Sequence record: PQ433349.1
Strand: one strand, 5' to 3'
DNA from: Escherichia phage vB_Ec-G1
Length of the DNA: 64,000 nt
In this document: in pieces, positions 1 to 16,626 of the stretch
How positions within the stretch are numbered: position 1 is the first letter of the stretch
Layout: each line of letters starts with the position of its first letter
Made by a program: the position numbers and the translations under genes
The notes under the pieces: generated by a model
Told to the model about the DNA's origin: nothing
Seen by the model: the letters and a program-made list of their open reading frames with translations, nothing else
Database searches by the model: none

Positions 1-1619
1 CAACTACAATTACTAATTTACCCGAAACATCAAAAGTTAATGGTTCAGATTACCTGGTTTTAGACCAACCTGATAAGACTGTTAAAAGCACAGTTTCCAA
101 CTTTCTTGCTGACACTGGGGTGGTTTTAGCCACCCAGTTGAAAGATACAGATGGAGCAGATTTAATAGGCTCACCACATGCCGGAACTCTGGCACAAATG
201 TTGCCGTGGGTTACTCCAGAGCAATTTGGCGCTGTTGGTGACGGTGTAACAGATGATATTGCGGCTCTTGACGCCTGTATGTCATACGCGAGAGAACGCG
301 GAGTAGATATCGTATTTTCCAAAACTTATGCCATTTCCAGACCCTACGTAATATATATGGGGCTACGGAGGAACCCACGCCATATAGGTATGGGTAATAT
401 GGCAAAAATAATCATTACAACTACGGCCACATCTGGGCTTCCGGTTGATTCTTATGAGATTCCTATGGACGTTAACGCGGCTGTTATTGTAGCCGCGATC
501 ACAGGTACAGGGTATAACCAGCAACCACAGAACTTCCGCTGGGAAAACATCGACATTGATACTACTGTAAATGCAGATTACGGCATGTATACGACAAAAA
601 TGCAATCAGCATCCATACGGAACTTCAGGACTCATAATTTCAAAACAGGTATCCAAGATAACGGGTCATGGAATACTTTGTATGAAAATATAAAAATGAC
701 AAAACACAGTATTGTTGGCTTCCGTAAGACTAGGGGTACTAGCACTACTATACGTAACTGTTATGTAGAGCAATCCACCGTAGGGTATCACGTTCGCAGT
801 GGCTATTCTCAGCTTGAGGGTTGTGCTTGTGATACAAGTACAGATGTATCTTATTGGATTGAAGGCAACCCTGTAGCGTCTAGTAGTGACGATACTTTCT
901 CTATTGTATCTTGTGGCTCAGAGAACTCAGGCAAAGCTGTTATACGATTAACTGGTACAGTTACACTTAGTGTAAGAAACTTCCAAGCATTTAACTGGGC
1001 GCAGCAGCAAGACCCTATACCTGAATACTTCATGGATTTACAGTCAAATAGCGCTAGTATATCTCTTGAAGATATACGGTATTTAGGTATTAGCGCCGGA
1101 CGAATAAAAGATACTGGGGTTAGTAACAATATAACCATTCGCAACATGACTACACGTGGAAGCGATGTGCGCAGCGGCGATGTACTGCCGAATAGCACCA
1201 AGATTATTGAAATGTCGCGTTCAGGTGTTCGTGTGTCTTCCGGTTATTCCCCTGATGGGATACTTATAGATTTTGACAATCTCTTCTTCACCACAGGGTC
1301 TAGCACTCAGCCAGTAAACTACAGTCCATTATTCAATAAGCAGCGTATATACCGCACGAAGGTGACGGTAACAAGAACATCGGGAACATATGGGAGAGCA
1401 CAAGTAACTTTGCCATTCAATTTTTCTGATACAAGTTATGTAGTGCAACTTACACCCAATGTGTACCATACCGACATAGCTACACATGCTCTCGTGGCTA
1501 CTGTTGGGCCTACAGACAAGACAGTAAACAGTTTTTATGTAAATTTAGGTAGCATCAACGGCAGCAGTACGTGGACTAGTTGTCAGGTTGATGTTACCGT
1601 TTTCGGACTGACTCCATAA
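1..1619 (+). CDS. tailspike/depolymerase-like protein (pectate-lyase-like), 5-prime partial
   Basis: Reading frame of track ORF 120..1619 stays open back to window start (no stop from nt 3); FGAVGDGVTDD motif typical of pectate-lyase-fold tailspikes. Confidence 0.6.
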   Translation, partial: TTITNLPETSKVNGSDYLVLDQPDKTVKSTVSNFLADTGVVLATQLKDTDGADLIGSPHAGTLAQMLPWVTPEQFGAVGDGVTDDIAALDACMSYARERGVDIVFSKTYAISRPYVIYMGLRRNPRHIGMGNMAKIIITTTATSGLPVDSYEIPMDVNAAVIVAAITGTGYNQQPQNFRWENIDIDTTVNADYGMYTTKMQSASIRNFRTHNFKTGIQDNGSWNTLYENIKMTKHSIVGFRKTRGTSTTIRNCYVEQSTVGYHVRSGYSQLEGCACDTSTDVSYWIEGNPVASSSDDTFSIVSCGSENSGKAVIRLTGTVTLSVRNFQAFNWAQQQDPIPEYFMDLQSNSASISLEDIRYLGISAGRIKDTGVSNNITIRNMTTRGSDVRSGDVLPNSTKIIEMSRSGVRVSSGYSPDGILIDFDNLFFTTGSSTQPVNYSPLFNKQRIYRTKVTVTRTSGTYGRAQVTLPFNFSDTSYVVQLTPNVYHTDIATHALVATVGPTDKTVNSFYVNLGSINGSSTWTSCQVDVTVFGLTP

Positions 1620-1660: not shown

Positions 1661-2104
1661 ATGAATGAATCAGGTGAACTGCTCCTAGTCAGACTGGAGA
1701 AACGATTGAAGACTCTGTTTGATAATCAGGCAATGGATAGACAGGACCGTGAGAAACTGGAGGAAACTTTGGTAGAACTACGGGATTCAATAAACGATAT
1801 AGTAAATAGACTTAACAGCGTGGAGGATATCTTAGCTAAATCTGAACCTACCATCGAAGAGTTCATCACCATTAAACATAAAGTTGCTGGTGCTGGAATT
1901 TTTGGCAAGTGGGCTTCATTAAGGTTCACACAAGATATGTCCTGCAAGCGCATGTCATCGCCATGTGATAAAATGATGAAAACATATCGTAGCAGGGTTA
2001 ATCTTGTCTTTAATTACTATCGTACTAACTCAAAGTGTTGTCACTACCACTGCAAGCCCCTCTTTGGAGGGGGCTTACTTAGAAAAACAAAGAGGTTGTT
2101 ATGA
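1661..2104 (+). CDS. hypothetical protein, coiled-coil N-terminus
   Basis: Track ORF; no clear RBS; 3-prime end runs through a hairpin, real stop may differ. Confidence 0.3.
   Translation: MNESGELLLVRLEKRLKTLFDNQAMDRQDREKLEETLVELRDSINDIVNRLNSVEDILAKSEPTIEEFITIKHKVAGAGIFGKWASLRFTQDMSCKRMSSPCDKMMKTYRSRVNLVFNYYRTNSKCCHYHCKPLFGGGLLRKTKRLL
2055..2080 (+). terminator. stem-loop
   Basis: agcccctc tttg gagggggct inverted repeat. Confidence 0.4.
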
Positions 2105-2409: not shown

Positions 2410-2648
2410 GAAAATTTTTAATAGGTATGTTTTGTACATATCCTGATAATAAAGTCAGTTCTACTAAAGTCTGGAACGCTGTAGGCATGTCGGTTATGAC
2501 AGGCATGTTTATCTTTTTAGGAATAGAAAAAGAAATTCCTGAATGGATGGGTTGGGCTTTTGTTTTCATGATAACCCCTTCTCGCCTCATGAAAAATCTT
2601 ATTGATTTACGTTGGGGCAGATCACAATCTACCAAAGAGGATGACTAA
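2406..2648 (+). CDS. small membrane protein
   Basis: Track ORF; hydrophobic segments; ATGA overlap with neighbours. Confidence 0.45.
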   Translation: MRKFLIGMFCTYPDNKVSSTKVWNAVGMSVMTGMFIFLGIEKEIPEWMGWAFVFMITPSRLMKNLIDLRWGRSQSTKEDD

Positions 2649-4137: not shown

Positions 4138-4767
4138 ATGGCAGTGAGTGTTGACCATGTAACAACTTGGGCCAGTATCAATGAAGACGTTAAAAACCTT
4201 CTGATTGAAGATTTTAAATCTTCTCCTAACATTGTCAAGCTCCTCTACATCGTATCCAGTGAAAAGCAAAAGATAGATCAGGCAATGATCTATCTTGCTA
4301 AACACCGCTTGATCTCCACAGCCACAGGCAAATACCTAGATATCTTAGGAGAAGAAATGGGGATCGAACGTAATGGCTCTGATGATGAAGAGTATAGAAC
4401 AATATTAAAAATCAGGGCTTACCGCGTAGCCTCATCGGGGACTCGTGGTGACATAATTGATATCTTCGCCCGTTTCACAGGAACCGAGCGTGAAACGCTT
4501 AATACTTACGTAGGTTTGAATAAAACCTTTGATGTGTTTTTCTACAACCTGTGTCTTCAATCTGATCAAGCTTTAGAGCAGTTGCTAAGTGTTTTTCCTA
4601 TTATTAGCAGCTACCGTCTTGGAGCAAAAGCAGGATCAGCTTTTGGTTTTAGTTCTTATTATGCTACCAAACCGCCTCATGGTATTGGTGGTTTAGGTTC
4701 CCTGTACATGGAATCTACTGGGGATGAAACAGGACGCATGTGTACGCTTCTCAAGCAAATAGATTAA
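4138..4767 (+). CDS. baseplate/tail formation protein (P2 gpI-like, tentative)
   Basis: Track ORF directly downstream of baseplate J-like gene. Confidence 0.4.
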   Translation: MAVSVDHVTTWASINEDVKNLLIEDFKSSPNIVKLLYIVSSEKQKIDQAMIYLAKHRLISTATGKYLDILGEEMGIERNGSDDEEYRTILKIRAYRVASSGTRGDIIDIFARFTGTERETLNTYVGLNKTFDVFFYNLCLQSDQALEQLLSVFPIISSYRLGAKAGSAFGFSSYYATKPPHGIGGLGSLYMESTGDETGRMCTLLKQID

Positions 4768-4776
4768 GGAGTTTAA

Positions 4777-5838
4777 ATGGCGAAGCCAATATATTATCCT
4801 GACTGGGCTACACAAACTGTAACGCTCCCAGGAACTTTAAACACAAACAAAATTAGACCTAAAGAAACCATCCGCACAGTTGGTATGGATTATGGTCAAA
4901 TCATGACTTGCGAAGAAATGAACTGGATTCTTAATAATATCGGTTTATGGATTCGTTATTTGGTGGATGACTTTATTCCAACTTTACCTAATACTTACTT
5001 GCCTTTAGTTGGAACTAAGATTACAATGGCAGGCGATGCTACTGGTGAGGCTACTTGGAACGGTGATAAAGAAGTTATTTTATCTATCCAAGTTCAAGAT
5101 AACAGTCATAATCACTTATCGGCAAACATTACAGATGCTACTAGTTCAATAGTAACACCAAATGTGTTGGTAAAACGTGATGCAGGTGGTGCTATTTATG
5201 GTGGTGATGTTTATGTTAATGGTACTTCCACAACAGATCCTGCAACCCTGTTTTTCAAGAACTTTGCAGGACAGACTAATGGTGAGATTTCTGCCGAATA
5301 CCAAAGTGGAGGTCAGCTTTATATTTATCGTAGAAATCCTAGCACAGGTAGTGTAGCCGCAGGTGTTCGTTTATATGATGCAGGTTATGTTCTAATAGAC
5401 AATCCAAGATCAAACAATGGACAAGACACTTCTAACGGAAATGCTTTAGTTCGTTTAGATTATCTGAACTCTCGTTTGACTTCCCTTCAGAACACATTGC
5501 AGACGAATATTAACACTGTTCAAAACAACTTGAATAATGTTAACAACAACCTCTCTTCTCGTATAAACAATGTAGAAAGTAATCATCAAAGTCAGATTAC
5601 AAATAACTACAACTATGCTAACGGAACCTTTGTAAGAGATATTCGTTATACTAGCCAAGGTGTGTATTATCCACCAGGGAACGAGGTTTCTTGGACTTAT
5701 ATCTGTTCTTCTGGTTATGTTCTTTCTGGTATTATCGTACAGGAAACAGGACGTAGCTCTGCGGATAACATCGGTGGGGTTTACTTCAAACGCCTCCAGC
5801 GCAACGTTAACGGAAACTGGTACGATATTGGAGGCTAA
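4777..5838 (+). CDS. tail fiber protein
   Basis: 353 aa; Asn-rich coiled stretch NNLNNVNNNLSSRINNVESN; followed by Tfa-like chaperone gene. Confidence 0.55.
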   Translation: MAKPIYYPDWATQTVTLPGTLNTNKIRPKETIRTVGMDYGQIMTCEEMNWILNNIGLWIRYLVDDFIPTLPNTYLPLVGTKITMAGDATGEATWNGDKEVILSIQVQDNSHNHLSANITDATSSIVTPNVLVKRDAGGAIYGGDVYVNGTSTTDPATLFFKNFAGQTNGEISAEYQSGGQLYIYRRNPSTGSVAAGVRLYDAGYVLIDNPRSNNGQDTSNGNALVRLDYLNSRLTSLQNTLQTNINTVQNNLNNVNNNLSSRINNVESNHQSQITNNYNYANGTFVRDIRYTSQGVYYPPGNEVSWTYICSSGYVLSGIIVQETGRSSADNIGGVYFKRLQRNVNGNWYDIGG

Positions 5839-11914: not shown

Positions 11915-14587
11915 ATGTTTCCAATTCCAATATTTACTATTATGACCAGCACTGGTGTCGTTCCTCTGCCAGCAGGTATTGTTAAAAAAGTAATTACTTT
12001 AGATTACCCAGATAACGCTGGTAATTCTAACAGCAGTTTAGCAATTTTGCTTAATGATGGTAGATTGTTTACTCAAGGTGCAAACCTCTTTGGTGAGATT
12101 GCAGATGGAACTCGTAGTGCACGATTCAATAATTTCCACTTAGCTTCTACTGTAGTAGCAGATGTGTTTACCGCAGATCGTTGTTTTGTTATTAAAACTA
12201 ACAGTGGGGGATGGCAATATTCAGGATTGACAGCAGGGTTGGTAGGATCTATAGCAGCAGGTGGTACGGATGCATGTGTAACTACTTGGACCAGCTTTCC
12301 ATCTGTGATAACAGGGACTATTTCTTTAGCCAATCTTAAAGAGGTTAAAGGAGGGTATAACAATACTCTCTGGTTAATGAATAGCGGCGTTCTTTATGGA
12401 TCGGGTCAAAACACAGTAGGCAGTTTAGGTGCAAGTACTACTAACGAAGTTTCTACTCCTCGTCAGATAACAAGCGCAGCAGTTGCTTTTGATGCAGGTT
12501 ACAACCAATGCTCTTATGTCAACAATGTGGGAACCTTGCGTGTTTGTGGAGCTAGTAAAGGTTTAGCAGGTAATAATAACACAACAACAGCTTTTGTCAA
12601 TGCCAAGATATCCGCTACTGAAACAGTGTATGTCAAAGATTACATCAATACAGTTTCCCAGACAATAGTTGTAGGAGATACCTCCGGTGGCACGGGTACA
12701 GTAAACTACTTATATGTTAGATCTAATACAGAAACAACCTACACTAAACTGGATACCTTTGCAGCAGGTTTCTCAACATGGAAGTTTCCACCAAGCCGCC
12801 ACTCTTTTTTCGTTGGGATCAATAATTCCTTGTGGGCTATTGGTAAGAACTACACTGCAAACTTAGGTTTGGGGTATGATTCTGCGAGCGGAGATCCACT
12901 CCAAGTGGGAAAACCAGTTAAACCTGAAGGAGTGGGTTCCTGGGATATAAACAAGCTCACAAGCGTTCATACGCTGAATATGGATGTTACTAACCAATTA
13001 GGTTATCAAGGAACCTTTTTCGTTTATAATGGAGATATGTATTATTCCGGTATTTGGAAAGATGGGAAAGCCTCGTATCTGTTCAATAGTGGTCTAAACT
13101 ATAATAAATTCACACCAATAGCAAGCTCCGTGATTACGGGTGATATTCTGGCAACTGGTTTAACTACAGATTCTTTAGGAATTTGTATTGTAGGTGGAAC
13201 TAAACAGTTGACACATTCTGTTAGCCCAGAAGGAGGTAAACTTTTCAATATTAAATACACTTCTTCTGCCCCTCCAAACATGACAATATCATCTACTGGT
13301 TTAATGACTTTCCATGCAGAAGGTGGTTTTGATGCAGGTATGACAGCCTTAAACGCTGAAGGAACAACTTTATCAGATACCTCTGGAGGATATGCTTCAA
13401 CATTGAGCGTTTACACCCCTAGCTTATCTGCGATGGATGTAGGAACAACACAAACAATGGTAGCAGAAATAACACCAACAGGAGCAGCAAGCTTACCTGA
13501 TATGGTTGTTGAGTATACAACTACAGATCCTAATGTTGCTACAGTAGATCCTACAACTGGTGTAATAACTGGTGTTGGTGATGGTGGTTGTAGGATTGGT
13601 TGCACAGCTACGTATCAAGGTGTTGTTACCGCTTCTGATAGTTCTTATTTAACGGTGAATGCTGTTGCGGGAAAGGAGTTAGCTCCATCTCCGAGTAGTA
13701 GTTTAACGGTTCTAAACGGATATTTCAACCACTCGGCAGATGGGGCAATTACGTTCCCAACTTTATCGGGTACTGTTACACCAGCTAACTTTGTAGTTAA
13801 GGTGGATGACGTTGTAGTTCCTTCAAGTAAAGTAATATTTAGAAACAAAGCTTTCTCTACAGTGGATAGTTATCCAGCAGGAGAATATAGACTGACTATT
13901 GAATTTGCAAGTGCTTCAGTAGTTAATAGTGTGGAAGTGTCTATGGAAGCAAACCCAAGTCTTTTAGAACTTTGGGGCGGTAATAGAATCAGTTATTCTA
14001 CAAGCCCAGCCTCACAATTCTTAAAAGGTTGTGCTAACTTAAGACGAATAACTTCTGATTGTTTTAGTAACACATCTTACACCGGAACATCTATAAGCGG
14101 TATCTTCTCTGGCTGCACAAGTTTGACAGCTATCCCTGAAGGATTATTCAGTGATGCTTTATTTCCTTCAATGACAACAATGTCAAGCACGTTTGAAGGT
14201 TGTACATCTTTAACATCTATTCCTTCAGATTTATTTAAGAATCTGTCAAAAGTTACAAGATATTCTTACACCTTTAAAGATTGCACCTCTCTTGCAGAAG
14301 TTCCAGCAGGAATGTTTGATAATATTCCAACGAAAGTGACCTCTTTAACAGCTACATTCCAAGGTTGTTTAGGACTTACAGATTTTAATAAGATCTTTAA
14401 TGACAACCCAGGGTTAACTGTTTGTGGTAAACGTGGAGCATTATCTTCTTTCTTTAGTGGATGCACAAATCTTACAGGAACAGGAACAACATTAACAAAT
14501 ACATTAGGCGGAGTAGCTAATAGTTACCTATTCAGGTATTGCACAAAACTTTCTGATTATAACAACATTCCTTCGGGTTATAAATAA
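11915..14587 (+). CDS. tail fiber/adhesin with Ig-like (Big_2) domain and leucine-rich repeats
   Basis: 890 aa; Big_2-like segment (ATVDPTTGVITGVGDGG); C-terminal repeats FSGCTSLTAIPEGLF / FEGCTSLTSIPSDLF / FKDCTSLAEVPAGMF. Confidence 0.6.
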   Translation: MFPIPIFTIMTSTGVVPLPAGIVKKVITLDYPDNAGNSNSSLAILLNDGRLFTQGANLFGEIADGTRSARFNNFHLASTVVADVFTADRCFVIKTNSGGWQYSGLTAGLVGSIAAGGTDACVTTWTSFPSVITGTISLANLKEVKGGYNNTLWLMNSGVLYGSGQNTVGSLGASTTNEVSTPRQITSAAVAFDAGYNQCSYVNNVGTLRVCGASKGLAGNNNTTTAFVNAKISATETVYVKDYINTVSQTIVVGDTSGGTGTVNYLYVRSNTETTYTKLDTFAAGFSTWKFPPSRHSFFVGINNSLWAIGKNYTANLGLGYDSASGDPLQVGKPVKPEGVGSWDINKLTSVHTLNMDVTNQLGYQGTFFVYNGDMYYSGIWKDGKASYLFNSGLNYNKFTPIASSVITGDILATGLTTDSLGICIVGGTKQLTHSVSPEGGKLFNIKYTSSAPPNMTISSTGLMTFHAEGGFDAGMTALNAEGTTLSDTSGGYASTLSVYTPSLSAMDVGTTQTMVAEITPTGAASLPDMVVEYTTTDPNVATVDPTTGVITGVGDGGCRIGCTATYQGVVTASDSSYLTVNAVAGKELAPSPSSSLTVLNGYFNHSADGAITFPTLSGTVTPANFVVKVDDVVVPSSKVIFRNKAFSTVDSYPAGEYRLTIEFASASVVNSVEVSMEANPSLLELWGGNRISYSTSPASQFLKGCANLRRITSDCFSNTSYTGTSISGIFSGCTSLTAIPEGLFSDALFPSMTTMSSTFEGCTSLTSIPSDLFKNLSKVTRYSYTFKDCTSLAEVPAGMFDNIPTKVTSLTATFQGCLGLTDFNKIFNDNPGLTVCGKRGALSSFFSGCTNLTGTGTTLTNTLGGVANSYLFRYCTKLSDYNNIPSGYK

Positions 14588-14617
14588 GAAAAGGAGCCAT
14601 TTGGCTCCTTTCTTTTA
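14586..14617. terminator. bidirectional intrinsic terminator between convergent modules
   Basis: aaggagcc atttg gctcctt hairpin flanked by A-run and T-run. Confidence 0.7.
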
Positions 14618-14651
14618 TTCAGCGTTCAACCTCATACACTTGAAACAAACC

Positions 14652-15578
14652 TTAGAAGCAATGCAGGAAGTTTCTACCATATTGCAGTCCAATAGGGGCA
14701 AATGGAATATCATCATCGAAGTCCATTGGAGGTTCTTCTTGATTACTTGGTTCTGGTTGTGGTTCAGGTTTCTTCTCTTCTTTCTTCTCTTCTTTCTTAG
14801 GTTGTTCTGCGGAACCACGAATGGCAGCAGCAACTTTATCAGACAGAGCCAGAACTTTACGAGCAGAATCAATCAGATCTTCTACAGATACAGTCTTAAT
14901 GGTATGGTCTTTACAAGCATTGAGAATAGCGTGACCAACAGATGCCCCAAGATCATAATCATTAATATCAACGCCACGAGATTCAGCAATTTCAGATTTC
15001 AGCGTGACAGTTGCAGATTGAACAACCCCAGCGATATCGAAAGCATCGCCTTTAACACCATTACGAATCAGTTCCAGTGCACCATTTACTGCGTGACCAG
15101 TTTCCAGACCTACAGTATCACGTTTTTTATAGGACTGTTTAGGAGCAGCATCGTTGGAACCTTTATTGCCAGAAGATTTGTTAGACTTCTGAACACCATC
15201 GGTAGACAATACTGTAATACGAGATTTTTTAGTATTGTAGTAAGTTTTACCGCCTTTATTATCAACGCGATCAATATCAATACTTACTTCTACACCTTTT
15301 TCAATAGTGATCCAATTATCACCTTCTTTGACTTGCAGGTTTTCATAACCTTCTTTCAGTTCAATATCACCAAGAGAAATCCAAACACCTTTCTCATCTG
15401 GTTTAGCACCTTTCTCTTTCAGAACAAGAGAAGCTCGGTGAGTTGAAACAATCGTTTTTCCTTCCCAATGAAAAGTTTTAGGTTCAGCGAATTTATCCAG
15501 TTTAACGTAGTCTACGATACCAGTTGCATAAGTTACGGTTTTGCCTTTACGATCAGTTTCAGTATTAATTACGGACAT
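14652..15578 (-). CDS. single-stranded DNA-binding protein-like
   Basis: 308 aa; KEEKKEEKKPEPQPEP linker then acidic DFDDDIPF motif (E. coli SSB-Ct-like), followed by 15 more residues. Confidence 0.55.
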   Translation of the reverse strand: MSVINTETDRKGKTVTYATGIVDYVKLDKFAEPKTFHWEGKTIVSTHRASLVLKEKGAKPDEKGVWISLGDIELKEGYENLQVKEGDNWITIEKGVEVSIDIDRVDNKGGKTYYNTKKSRITVLSTDGVQKSNKSSGNKGSNDAAPKQSYKKRDTVGLETGHAVNGALELIRNGVKGDAFDIAGVVQSATVTLKSEIAESRGVDINDYDLGASVGHAILNACKDHTIKTVSVEDLIDSARKVLALSDKVAAAIRGSAEQPKKEEKKEEKKPEPQPEPSNQEEPPMDFDDDIPFAPIGLQYGRNFLHCF

Positions 15579-15594
15579 TATTATCTCCTCTACA

Positions 15595-15987
15595 TTACAT
15601 TAATTTTGCACAGAAAGAGCGGAGTCTTTCCATATCATCTTGCTCTAACAGGTATTTACCTTTACCTATTCCAACTCCAATTTCACCATTAGGGAAATGA
15701 ACTATTTGCACTGGAAAACCTCCGAGTTTAATTGTGGCAGCTTTGCCTTCTTCGTCTATAACGTTTCGGATTGTATCTTGCAGTGAAATGAATTCTTTGT
15801 TTGTAACAGTGGTTTCAATTATTTCAGATGCTTCAACACGAGCAGTTAGCTTCTTGTTTCCACCTTGAATAACCAAAATCTGAAAATAAAAAGAGTTGTC
15901 AAGACCTACAACATTTTTCTCAACTAGTGTTAAACTGGTATAGTTTCCATAAACAGTTTCAACAGCTATCTTAGAACGTTCAGTCAT
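15595..15987 (-). CDS. hypothetical protein
   Basis: Track ORF 130 aa in replication module. Confidence 0.5.
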   Translation of the reverse strand: MTERSKIAVETVYGNYTSLTLVEKNVVGLDNSFYFQILVIQGGNKKLTARVEASEIIETTVTNKEFISLQDTIRNVIDEEGKAATIKLGGFPVQIVHFPNGEIGVGIGKGKYLLEQDDMERLRSFCAKLM

Positions 15988-16032: not shown

Positions 16033-16626
16033 TTACCAAGGAATATCATCTTCTTCTAATCTGGTATCTACTTGAGGTGGACGTGGAACCTTAACCTCTT
16101 TCACAAAACGAAGATATGGGAAACGTGTAGCAATTTTAATAACATGTTTGGCATCTTCTCTAACATCTTTGTGCAAGAAGCAGATCCCTGTTTCCAAGGT
16201 TGTTTCAAAATCTTTAGAATAATAACAGTCCTTCCCATCAAATGCAGCCTGGCAGATGGATAGATCGAACTCATTTAGAAAGGTTGTCATTACGCTTGGT
16301 TCCATAATCATAAGGTTGCAAAGCTGACCATCACGTTCAAACTCAAAAACGTGTTTAAGACCAGTAACACCCTCGTAGTTATCCGAAGCTTCTTTGTTTC
16401 CTAATTTACGAACATTAGTTCCCATCAAAGCAGATGCAATCAATTCTTGTATTTGCTCTTCTGATCGATGTGCAGGAAGAGACGTGTAAAAATCCAGATC
16501 ACGTCCAGCAATATCAAGAATACGCCAATCACGAACAGCGCCGCCAGCCAAGACAGAATTAGGATCAGCAATCTTTAATACGGTAAGAATTTCTTTGGCA
16601 ATATTGATTTGTTTTGATTTAGTCAT
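16033..16626 (-). CDS. nucleotidyltransferase (Pol-beta superfamily) with acidic DDIPW C-terminus
   Basis: GGAVRDWRILDIAGRDLDF matches GG[AS]VRD...DxD head motif of CCA-adding/polyA-polymerase class; ends EEDDIPW-stop. Confidence 0.55.
   Translation of the reverse strand: MTKSKQINIAKEILTVLKIADPNSVLAGGAVRDWRILDIAGRDLDFYTSLPAHRSEEQIQELIASALMGTNVRKLGNKEASDNYEGVTGLKHVFEFERDGQLCNLMIMEPSVMTTFLNEFDLSICQAAFDGKDCYYSKDFETTLETGICFLHKDVREDAKHVIKIATRFPYLRFVKEVKVPRPPQVDTRLEEDDIPW

Follow-up and report, generated by a model that had tools for sequence, protein, structure and literature searches.

The C-terminal tip of E. coli-type SSB (...MDFDDDIPF-COOH), which follows the disordered linker of an OB-fold, ssDNA-binding-type protein, is the textbook case of a motif that must form a free C-terminus to function: its partners ExoI, RecQ, chi and PriA bind both the side chain and the free α-carboxylate of the terminal Phe, and it is this carboxylate that defines the interaction hub. 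In T-even phages, SegG, a free-standing homing endonuclease of the GIY-YIG type, sits beside gene 32, the T4 SSB gene, and free-standing elements of this class show presence/absence polymorphism between close relatives and presumed gene conversion. ShiLan is an HNH homing element that is neither an intron nor an intein, its DNA being read in the host frame with the nuclease encoded out of frame, and inteins and group I introns with homing endonuclease genes (HEGs) place a selfish nuclease at a conserved site of an important gene and leave that gene usable. Most recently, Bas52_0087 of the rV5-like phage RudolfGeigy was described, in the accessible text of a preprint, as an SSB-like trigger of the DRT10 (UG17) defence, its authors noting the protein's FDDDIPF tip and a link to ExoI; that text treats the tip as C-terminal and makes no mention of capped versions in sister phages (bioRxiv 10.64898/2026.04.29.721553).

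The window analyzed here (64,000 nt of Escherichia phage vB_Ec-G1, PQ433349.1) encodes an SSB-like protein with the same acidic-hydrophobic DFDDDIPF sequence after a disordered, Lys/Glu/Pro-rich linker, but the protein as encoded lacks the free terminal Phe carboxylate, 15 further conserved residues being present after the Phe (Table 1). By ORF translation the C-terminus is ...EEPPMDFDDDIPFAPIGLQYGRNFLHCF, also read as ...KKPEPQPEPSNQEEPPMDFDDDIPFAPIGLQYGRNFLHCF, in which DFDDDIPF is followed by APIGLQYGRNFLHCF (tip and tail together, DFDDDIPFAPIGLQYGRNFLHCF), and the +1 frame of the tail region encodes the remnant of another gene, MVETSCIASKVCFKCMRLNAE*. The original prediction had placed the tip 15 residues before the C-terminus, with a Lys/Pro-rich linker in front of it and no simple frameshift that would restore a terminal Phe, and these points stand: position and description agree with ORF translation and codon map, the linker proves to be rich in Glu as well, and neither of the other two frames terminates at the Phe. 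The main fact it missed is that the tail arises where the SSB frame reads on into the 5′ end of a homing-endonuclease cassette, a remnant of which lies just downstream.

Table 1. Features at the 3′ end of the SSB-like gene (positions in the window)
Feature	Position	Strand	Basis and remarks
Bidirectional terminator hairpin	14589..14612	.	Between the convergent SSB-like and tail-protein genes; downstream cassette boundary; common to all haplotypes
Putative homing-endonuclease ghost ORF MVETSCIASKVCFKCMRLNAE*, 21 codons	14615..14680	(-)	Retains codons 1-15 and the final 4 codons of the predicted HNH gene, which Mt1B1_P17 has intact; translation and alignment
Deletion junction	14632..14636	.	434 nt of the endonuclease gene exchanged for a 5-nt filler (tcata on the + strand), which removes a net 143 codons in frame
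SSB-like gene, 308 aa	14652..15578	(-)	ORF translation; OB-like beta domain at the N-terminus, then a disordered linker, a helical domain, the acidic tip and the 15-aa tail
TAA stop of the SSB-like ORF	14652..14654	(-)	Falls within TCT AAG, which encodes Ser-Lys in the endonuclease remnant
15-codon tail APIGLQYGRNFLHCF	14655..14699	(-)	Its final 8 codons share their DNA with the HEG start region, which is read in another frame; no counterpart in ESCO5-type alleles
DFDDDIPF, the SSB C-terminal-tip motif, here internal	14700..14723	(-)	Codon map; kept in all homologues

The identity of the protein is set by full-length homology: the phrog_4477 profile matches it from end to end (E=6e-97), 165 whole-protein homologues were recovered, and BLASTP against Bas52_0087 gives 2e-16 and 7e-13, which places it in the PHROG 4477/Bas52_0087-type SSB-like family of the Stephanstirmvirinae and Vequintavirinae. 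A Pfam search returned spurious low-complexity matches and no SSB domain (PF00436), and the SSB PHROG profiles match the C-terminal tail region only; the label SSB-like is reasonable, with canonical SSB family membership claimed by neither Pfam nor a full-length SSB PHROG. P292 and F293 are invariant across 75 aligned homologue sequences, and throughout the homologue family DFDDDIPF is conserved as the C-terminal tip, a chance match being excluded. In the AF2 model tip and tail are disordered (pLDDT about 50), and docking of either onto the core is not seen, so that the model offers no structural hint at what they do. A role as an ssDNA binder that recruits partners via the tip is putative.

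Comparison with homologues, which had been proposed as the deciding check, reveals a dimorphic family rather than one uniformly carrying the extension: of the 120 best homologue clusters of a whole-protein search, 34 have an APIGLQY-type tail and the other 86 stop at xPF, and in none of the 120 is the tip followed by any other, truncated or unrelated extension. An assembly or editing quirk, raised earlier as one explanation, does not fit these data. A lost stop codon or frameshift introduced by sequencing, assembly or annotation would account for the oddity of an internal tip and for nothing further, and we give it practically no weight: the identical structure, at 96.9-99.4% identity, is found in DIJ07P2, 536P1, ECO340P2 and DE16, four further phages that were sequenced independently, and related tails recur across hundreds of phage and prophage SSB records, conserved in amino acids with saturated synonymous change. 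This shared haplotype, together with the alignment described below, rules the artefact out.

The region of the window is 96-99% identical to Phapecoctavirus (phAPEC8-like) coliphages, which carry several alleles at the 3′ end of the gene. In the ESCO5-type allele, found in most Phapecoctavirus genomes, the gene terminates exactly at ...DFDDDIPF*; Mt1B1_P17 carries the identical 15-aa tail and, after it, a gene annotated as an HNH-type endonuclease, which is also present at the SSB-like site of ZCKP1, nieznany and PsgM04F; the window, DIJ07P2, 536P1, ECO340P2 and DE16 have the tail and a remnant, with no endonuclease gene; and nepoznato and AV125 have the HEG without the tail, their SSB ending in DDNIPF*. 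The ESCO5, Mt1B1_P17 and window/DE16 haplotypes sit in Phapecoctavirus genomes that are about 98% identical. A five-way DNA alignment of the window, Mt1B1_P17, DE16, ESCO5 and nepoznato resolves the differences to the nucleotide: window and DE16 correspond to Mt1B1_P17 less 434 nt, plus a 5-nt filler. The resulting ghost ORF retains the first CxxC within its 15 N-terminal codons, onto which the last four codons and the stop are joined, and these 15 codons are 93% identical to residues 1-15 of the HEG of phage Tr1 (tblastn). No intact nuclease ORF is found in the window, where 21 codons are left; it is intact in Mt1B1_P17, ZCKP1, nieznany, PsgM04F and Tr1. The alignment shows that, as judged from these haplotypes, the window lineage lost the HEG by an in-frame deletion of 143 codons, after the cassette had arrived. 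Independent remnant sequence downstream of the SSB stop is confined to the window haplotype; a +1-frame MVETS... peptide in Nernie and PVP-SE1 was considered as a second and third such remnant and rejected, its frame being dictated by the conserved tail.

Where the endonuclease is complete, its relation to the tail can be read directly. In the Citrobacter phage Tr1, the coliphage mEp554, the rV5-like phages EmilHeitz and MaxBurger and an IMG/VR contig (L022), the full HEG ORF starts inside the tail, its ATG spanning the Tyr-Gly codons (caA TAT GGt). The HEG AUG lies 5-30 nt upstream of the SSB stop, which falls within the first ~10 HEG codons, where TGT AAG or TCT AAG is read as ..T TAA G... 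For the Mt1B1_P17 endonuclease the RefSeq start (MADGH...) is internal; the true ORF start is MVETSCIASKVCFKCGVLKPLTEFYKHKAMADGH, which matches the PHROG 2340 N-terminus, as does that of Tr1. Four tail-bearing homologues chosen without regard to downstream content (P0016, P0045, P0050 and P0085) all have an endonuclease of the same family immediately behind the tail; in three of the four the two overlap, and the HEG start positions differ. In total, the tail is directly followed or overlapped by the endonuclease in 12 lineages and on three SSB architectures, namely the two-domain SSB-like protein, the canonical one-OB SSB and the Rtp/phiEB49-type SSB. The nucleases share an N-terminal zinc-ribbon-like module (CxxC...FYKH...DGHxNKCKxC) and have a nuclease domain of the PHROG 2340 HNH-like type or, in rV5-like phages, of PHROG 1035. 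Profile matches reach 1e-47 for PHROG 2340 ('endonuclease') and about 1e-6 to 1e-7 for PHROG 2255 ('HNH endonuclease'), and the rV5-type HEG matches PHROG 1035 ('endonuclease VII'). A motif CxxCG...HAHHCDYDKPL...WLCxxHH is visible in the HEG sequences, and the nuclease domain is named from the PHROG profiles, since a Pfam search with four of the endonucleases and a PDB sequence search with that of Tr1 gave no match. HEGs of the same family also follow SSB genes that keep their own stop, in nepoznato and in Vibrio phage F89 g1, and the tail is therefore not required for insertion. Together, these comparisons show the tail as the SSB-frame-translated part of a predicted HEG cassette, inserted after the Phe codon with removal of the host stop.

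An independent replicate is provided by the rV5-like phages (Vequintavirus). A tblastn search with the EmilHeitz protein matches residues 1-423, tail included, in about 31 of 116 Vequintavirus records, and in most of the annotated tail-bearing rV5-like records a gene at the site is labelled 'endonuclease VII' or 'putative homing endonuclease'; the remaining rV5-like records match residues 1-408, up to ...DIPF, and among the 29 of these listed none has an endonuclease there. The BASEL phages EmilHeitz (Bas49) and MaxBurger (Bas54) carry tail and HEG, and their sister RudolfGeigy (Bas52) has the empty, free-tip allele, Bas52_0087 being 408 aa long and ending in DIPF*. Relative to the empty site of AlexBoehm (Bas56), MaxBurger differs by a single 640-nt insertion placed exactly between the Phe codon (TTY) and the TAA; the insert consists of tail plus HEG, and the former SSB TAA now terminates the endonuclease (...EYF*). 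The putative site of cleavage in phage and host ssb genes would be ...GAYATHCCNTTY-TAA. Tail-bearing and tail-less phages alike were isolated and propagated on E. coli K-12 (Bas49/54 and Bas52/56), and these form natural near-isogenic pairs of capped (Bas49, Bas54) and free-tip (Bas52, Bas56) alleles. Presence/absence polymorphism at one exact site in near-identical genomes is thus found in both Phapecoctavirus and Vequintavirus, and the alignments show tail and HEG to have been gained as one unit with exact boundaries in the two genera.

Neither an intron nor an intein accounts for this arrangement. An Rfam search of positions 14300-15700 of the window and of two HEG-bearing loci (L003 and L037) gave no intron or ribozyme match with E<0.5, and these readings were dropped for that reason; intein boundary residues (Cys/Ser/Thr at +1, a His-Asn end) are likewise missing, the tail starting with Ala-Pro and ending with Cys-Phe, and the distance from the Phe codon to the terminator is only about 100 nt.

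The tail also occurs where no HEG is found. Related tails are present on the canonical SSBs of the lambdoid phages mEp235 and ECP1, of Cronobacter phage JK004, of Vibrio phages and of phage-plasmids, and on prophage SSBs of Vibrio, Pseudoalteromonas, Oceanisphaera, Glaciecola and Providencia. Of 5426 complete E. coli genomes, 299 carry the mEp235-type allele, annotated ssb, and tblastn with tip plus tail covers the tail in 214 phage and 45 plasmid records; scans of IMG/VR and of GTDB genomes gave 8 loci each, with a pattern that demands APIGLQY and is hence biased. Within 900 nt downstream of the tail-bearing canonical SSBs (prophages, phage-plasmids, mEp235, ECP1 and JK004) no endonuclease was found, and the genes that follow, 8-60 nt away, are mutually unrelated. 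Such loci are what would be expected if the APIGLQY tail were an older, independent SSB module beside which the HEG merely lodges, with ordinary recombination instead of homing having acted in the window, and the existence of tail-less HEGs of the same family and the variable HEG start positions within the tail point the same way. We regard this as a real possibility but a doubtful one, as tail and HEG were gained in two genera as one indel with exact boundaries, an HEG or its remnant adjoins the tail in most tail-bearing lineages of the two-domain SSB-like family examined (Nernie and PVP-SE1 have no independent remnant), and HEG sequence is retained downstream of the tail in the window itself. 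It is important to note that the question bears on the deep origin of the tail and not on the content of the window: at deep time depth the tail may predate its link to the HEG, because many tail-bearing SSBs have no HEG nearby, and the reading of the window is unchanged.

Substitution patterns within the tail bear on whether it does anything at all. The tail family follows the pattern F-[AS]-P-[IVL]-[GC]-[LK]-[QPM]-Y, with a further 6-10 residues leading to a mostly hydrophobic C-terminus (..YAL, ..HCF, ..HAI, ..LAM), and the 34 tail-bearing clusters contain 20 distinct tails of 13-17 aa. In 17 diverse loci APIGLQY is encoded by all four codons of Ala, Pro and Gly, all six of Leu and both of Gln and Tyr. 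Nei-Gojobori counts in the SSB frame give a pN/pS of 0.19 for tail codons 1-7 (pS 0.83, saturated), whose conservation is inflated in those subsets where loci came from queries needing tail similarity, the 120-cluster tally and loci L032-L035 being free of this bias; for codons 8-15 the ratio is 0.54 in the SSB frame and 0.80 in the endonuclease frame. The tails of the window and of Nernie, a Stephanstirmvirinae relative that shares about 63% identity in this protein, differ by 7 synonymous and 0 nonsynonymous changes, and those of the window and Tr1 by 5 and 0. In the HEG-less canonical SSB groups, pN/pS is 0.27-0.29 for the tail, 0.02-0.05 for the DFDDDIPF tip and about 0.5 for the linker. 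Together, these data show the signature of purifying selection in the SSB frame on the tail peptide (F-[AS]P[IVL]GLQY-x4-8-hydrophobic C-terminus), also on SSBs without an HEG. The tail could still be viewed as a meaningless by-product of insertion whose masking of the tip is paid for by homing drive, given its perfect linkage to a selfish element in two genera and a first tail codon (GCN) that leaves no single point mutation able to remove it. These selection data disfavor such a neutral scar, and we judge it very unlikely: synonymous changes strongly exceed nonsynonymous ones in the SSB frame, with less constraint in the HEG frame, and the 34 independent clusters contain 0 truncated or unrelated extensions despite one-step routes to stop codons at Gly (GGA), Leu (TTA/TTG), Gln and Tyr.

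The same data weigh on translational control, whereby the nascent tail peptide, the gene geometry or both would set downstream expression through termination-reinitiation coupling or ribosome arrest. The geometry is indeed conserved, with the HEG start in the tail and the SSB stop among the opening ~10 codons of the HEG; 17-20 nt beyond the stop there is a G+C-rich hairpin, conserved but with stems that differ, and FAPIG loosely recalls arrest motifs of the RAPG/HAPIRGSP type. Coupling, however, explains geometry and not peptide conservation, the tail is conserved where the next genes are unrelated and 8-60 nt away, and it is kept in the window although the HEG is gone, all of which makes this account highly improbable. 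Resemblances of the tail to the β-clamp-binding motif (QLxLF), the PIP box, ClpX C-motifs, the ssrA tag, Lon degrons and the SecM/ApdA arrest motifs are loose, and none was adopted.

Taken as a whole, we consider it likely that the locus is explained by an HEG-cassette origin, later deletion of the HEG, and a selected tail that makes the SSB tip internal. A predicted HNH-type HEG (PHROG 2340) inserts right after the last sense codon (Phe) of a phage SSB gene and removes its stop, upon which the SSB ORF reads 13-17 codons into the cassette and stops at a TAA inside the first HEG codons; the nuclease would home by cutting empty alleles near the highly conserved DDDIPF-stop coding sequence. In the window lineage the cassette arrived in this way and the HEG was then deleted, leaving the tail, the 21-codon ghost and an encoded protein with a permanently internal DDDIPF tip. 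Homing by the HEG is probable given the presence/absence polymorphism and the exact boundaries. The tail itself may act as a disordered short linear motif that turns a carboxylate-dependent tip internal; the internal tip could keep host SSB-interacting proteins from docking or send them elsewhere, and the sequence-specific part of the tail could engage a conserved gammaproteobacterial partner or fold back against the tip. The cassette could thus occupy an important gene without destroying it. We infer that the tail is a functional short linear motif because lineages with a fixed tail keep the tip under strong conservation, because the tail is conserved even without an adjoining endonuclease, and because both alleles occur in phages propagated on E. 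coli K-12; in our preferred reading the motif would change the partners recruited by SSB.

The main functional rival to such a retained motif is a removable pro-peptide: a host protease would cut off the tail and regenerate ...DIPF-COOH, rendering the cassette phenotypically silent in a protein-level analogue of intron or intein removal. This fits the logic of a selfish element, with which the tail travels, and it agrees with the strongest conservation falling on the residues directly after the Phe (APIGLQY), with the strong constraint on the tip in tail-bearing genes, with propagation of tail-bearing and tail-less phages on the same E. coli K-12 host, and with hydrophobic tail ends of the kind used by C-terminal recognition systems. 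We nevertheless think it unlikely, as no cytoplasmic E. coli protease is known to us that cuts at F|AP, the tail contains neither a nucleophile nor any other self-cleavage feature, and ATP-dependent proteases starting at a C-terminal degron would not halt precisely at the Phe. In an extension of the retained-motif reading, the APIGLQY tail would be a transferable module, carried by the HEG from one SSB gene to another unrelated one, that caps the SSB tip to stop the engagement of host partners such as ExoI, a beneficial cargo that pays for the nuclease. We consider this distinctly unlikely; were it true, recombination and replication intermediates could be protected, and defences triggered via phage SSB-like proteins (DRT10, possibly retron Eco8 or Hna) could be blunted.

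The implications depend in part on the fate of the tail. A conserved, selected peptide follows what should be a free C-terminus in hundreds of phage, prophage and phage-plasmid SSBs, and one tail-bearing allele is present, annotated plainly as 'ssb', in about 5% of complete E. coli genomes. If the tail is retained, many SSBs of mobile elements would do without canonical use of the hub, which bears on the portability of recombineering, on how phages take over host repair and on defences that phage SSBs set off; if it is removed, the locus would represent a new way in which an HEG can settle at the end of an important gene with no need of an intron or intein. In both cases a putative family of homing endonucleases directed at the DDDIPF-stop end of ssb genes is defined, and a simple annotation rule follows: where an ssb ORF continues beyond DIPF into APIGLQY, this is a sign of a cassette or its ghost. 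The window itself preserves only a decayed footprint, yet exposes a general exception to the free-tip rule for which natural controls are at hand.

A full-text literature search for the tail strings (APIGLQY, DDIPFAP and related) found no paper, subscription-only literature lying outside the search. The HK620 Sak4/SSB paper was rejected as a precedent, the SSB there ending in NDYPPF without a tail, and the ETfinder and Hna papers are not relevant to the tail. The individual parts are known, namely the SSB-tip motif, the free-standing HNH homing endonuclease and the out-of-frame 'hidden' HNH insertion exemplified by ShiLan. Their combination, an HEG family on the last ssb codon together with a tip-capping peptide that is widespread on canonical prophage SSBs, appears undescribed in the literature covered by the same search.

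Compared with E. coli-type SSB, the window protein falls outside Pfam PF00436 and belongs to PHROG 4477, with an extra helical domain. Bas52_0087 is of a homologous family but has a free tip at DIPF*, whereas its counterparts in the sister phages Bas49 and Bas54 are capped and followed by an HEG. Unlike SegG, the cassette described here removes the host stop and appends a conserved peptide, and its nuclease is predicted to be of the HNH type and overlaps the host ORF out of frame; unlike inteins and group I introns, it has no splicing machinery, and the window leaves too little room for either. ShiLan lies inside its host ORF and its whole insert is read through, whereas here the insertion is confined to the 3′ end and only 13-17 codons are read, and these read-through codons form a conserved motif beside a known interaction tip.

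A G+C-rich hairpin lies 17-20 nt 3' of the SSB stop in eight comparison loci (L008, L009, L011, L013, L032, L034, L035 and L037), within the 5' coding region of the adjoining endonuclease, where it spans the codons C-G-x-x-K-P-L. Its stems vary by lineage (GGGGCT/AGCCCC, GGAGAGGT/ACCTCTCC, GGTGGGC/GCCCATC, GGGGCG/TGCCCC and GGGGTT/AACCCC), T-runs follow two of the hairpins, and in coliphage mEp554 a terminator is annotated by ARNold at the same site. The hairpin may act as a terminator or attenuator between ssb and nuclease; in the window it has been lost by deletion.

The endonuclease gene of phage nepoznato is a mosaic, with a 3' half identical to the gene of the Phapecoctavirus Mt1B1_P17 and a divergent 5' half. 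The adjoining SSB gene retains its own TGA stop, and the tip of its product reads DDNIPF rather than DDDIPF, a substitution that may represent a target-site immunity change.

Features discussed in the text, with their coordinates
Feature	Sequence	Coordinates	Strand	Remark
Mosaic endonuclease of phage nepoznato	L013	1501-1932		
G+C-rich hairpin	L011	~1935-1950		
G+C-rich hairpin	L037	~2490-2512		
Tail-bearing canonical SSB and downstream ORF	L018	~4683-5000		IMG/VR contig
Tail-bearing canonical SSB and downstream ORF	L019	~594-900		IMG/VR contig
Nucleotidyltransferase gene, neighbour of SSB-like gene	window	16033-16626	-	PHROG 10174
Convergent 890-aa tail protein	window	11915-14587	+	

In the two IMG/VR contigs, a canonical SSB carrying the extension beyond its tip, or tail (APIGLQYGKSRIHALS), is followed by MEKAESTH in the endonuclease frame, with an unrelated ORF of 97 aa joined to it. 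The arrangement suggests that the body of the nuclease gene was replaced but its start region kept, along with the tail. Separately, in certain E. coli chromosomes (e.g., NZ_CP162303.1, 1514053-1514098) the match to the mEp235-type ssb allele is limited to its 45-nt tail; these matches, which overlap other genes or fall in DNA that carries no annotation, may be orphan tail remnants.

Many MG0656xx records, named as Campylobacter phages, share 97-99% identity at the SSB-like locus with phAPEC8-like, phi92-like and rV5-like phages of E. coli, which suggests mislabelled hosts or contaminant genomes.

The window's convergent tail protein ends C-terminally in repeated Cys-containing leucine-rich units (F..C..LT.IP) of DUF285/BspA-like type, and its L032 counterpart matches Big_2 and DUF285. 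The nucleotidyltransferase next to the SSB-like gene terminates in LEEDDIPW, an acidic-hydrophobic end resembling the SSB tip, which is not kept in the same-position gene of the related phage Nernie or of loci L032-L035. That gene encodes a SIR2-domain protein in L033, and in L032 and L034 it matches Pfam Gad2, an anti-Gabija nucleotidyltransferase.
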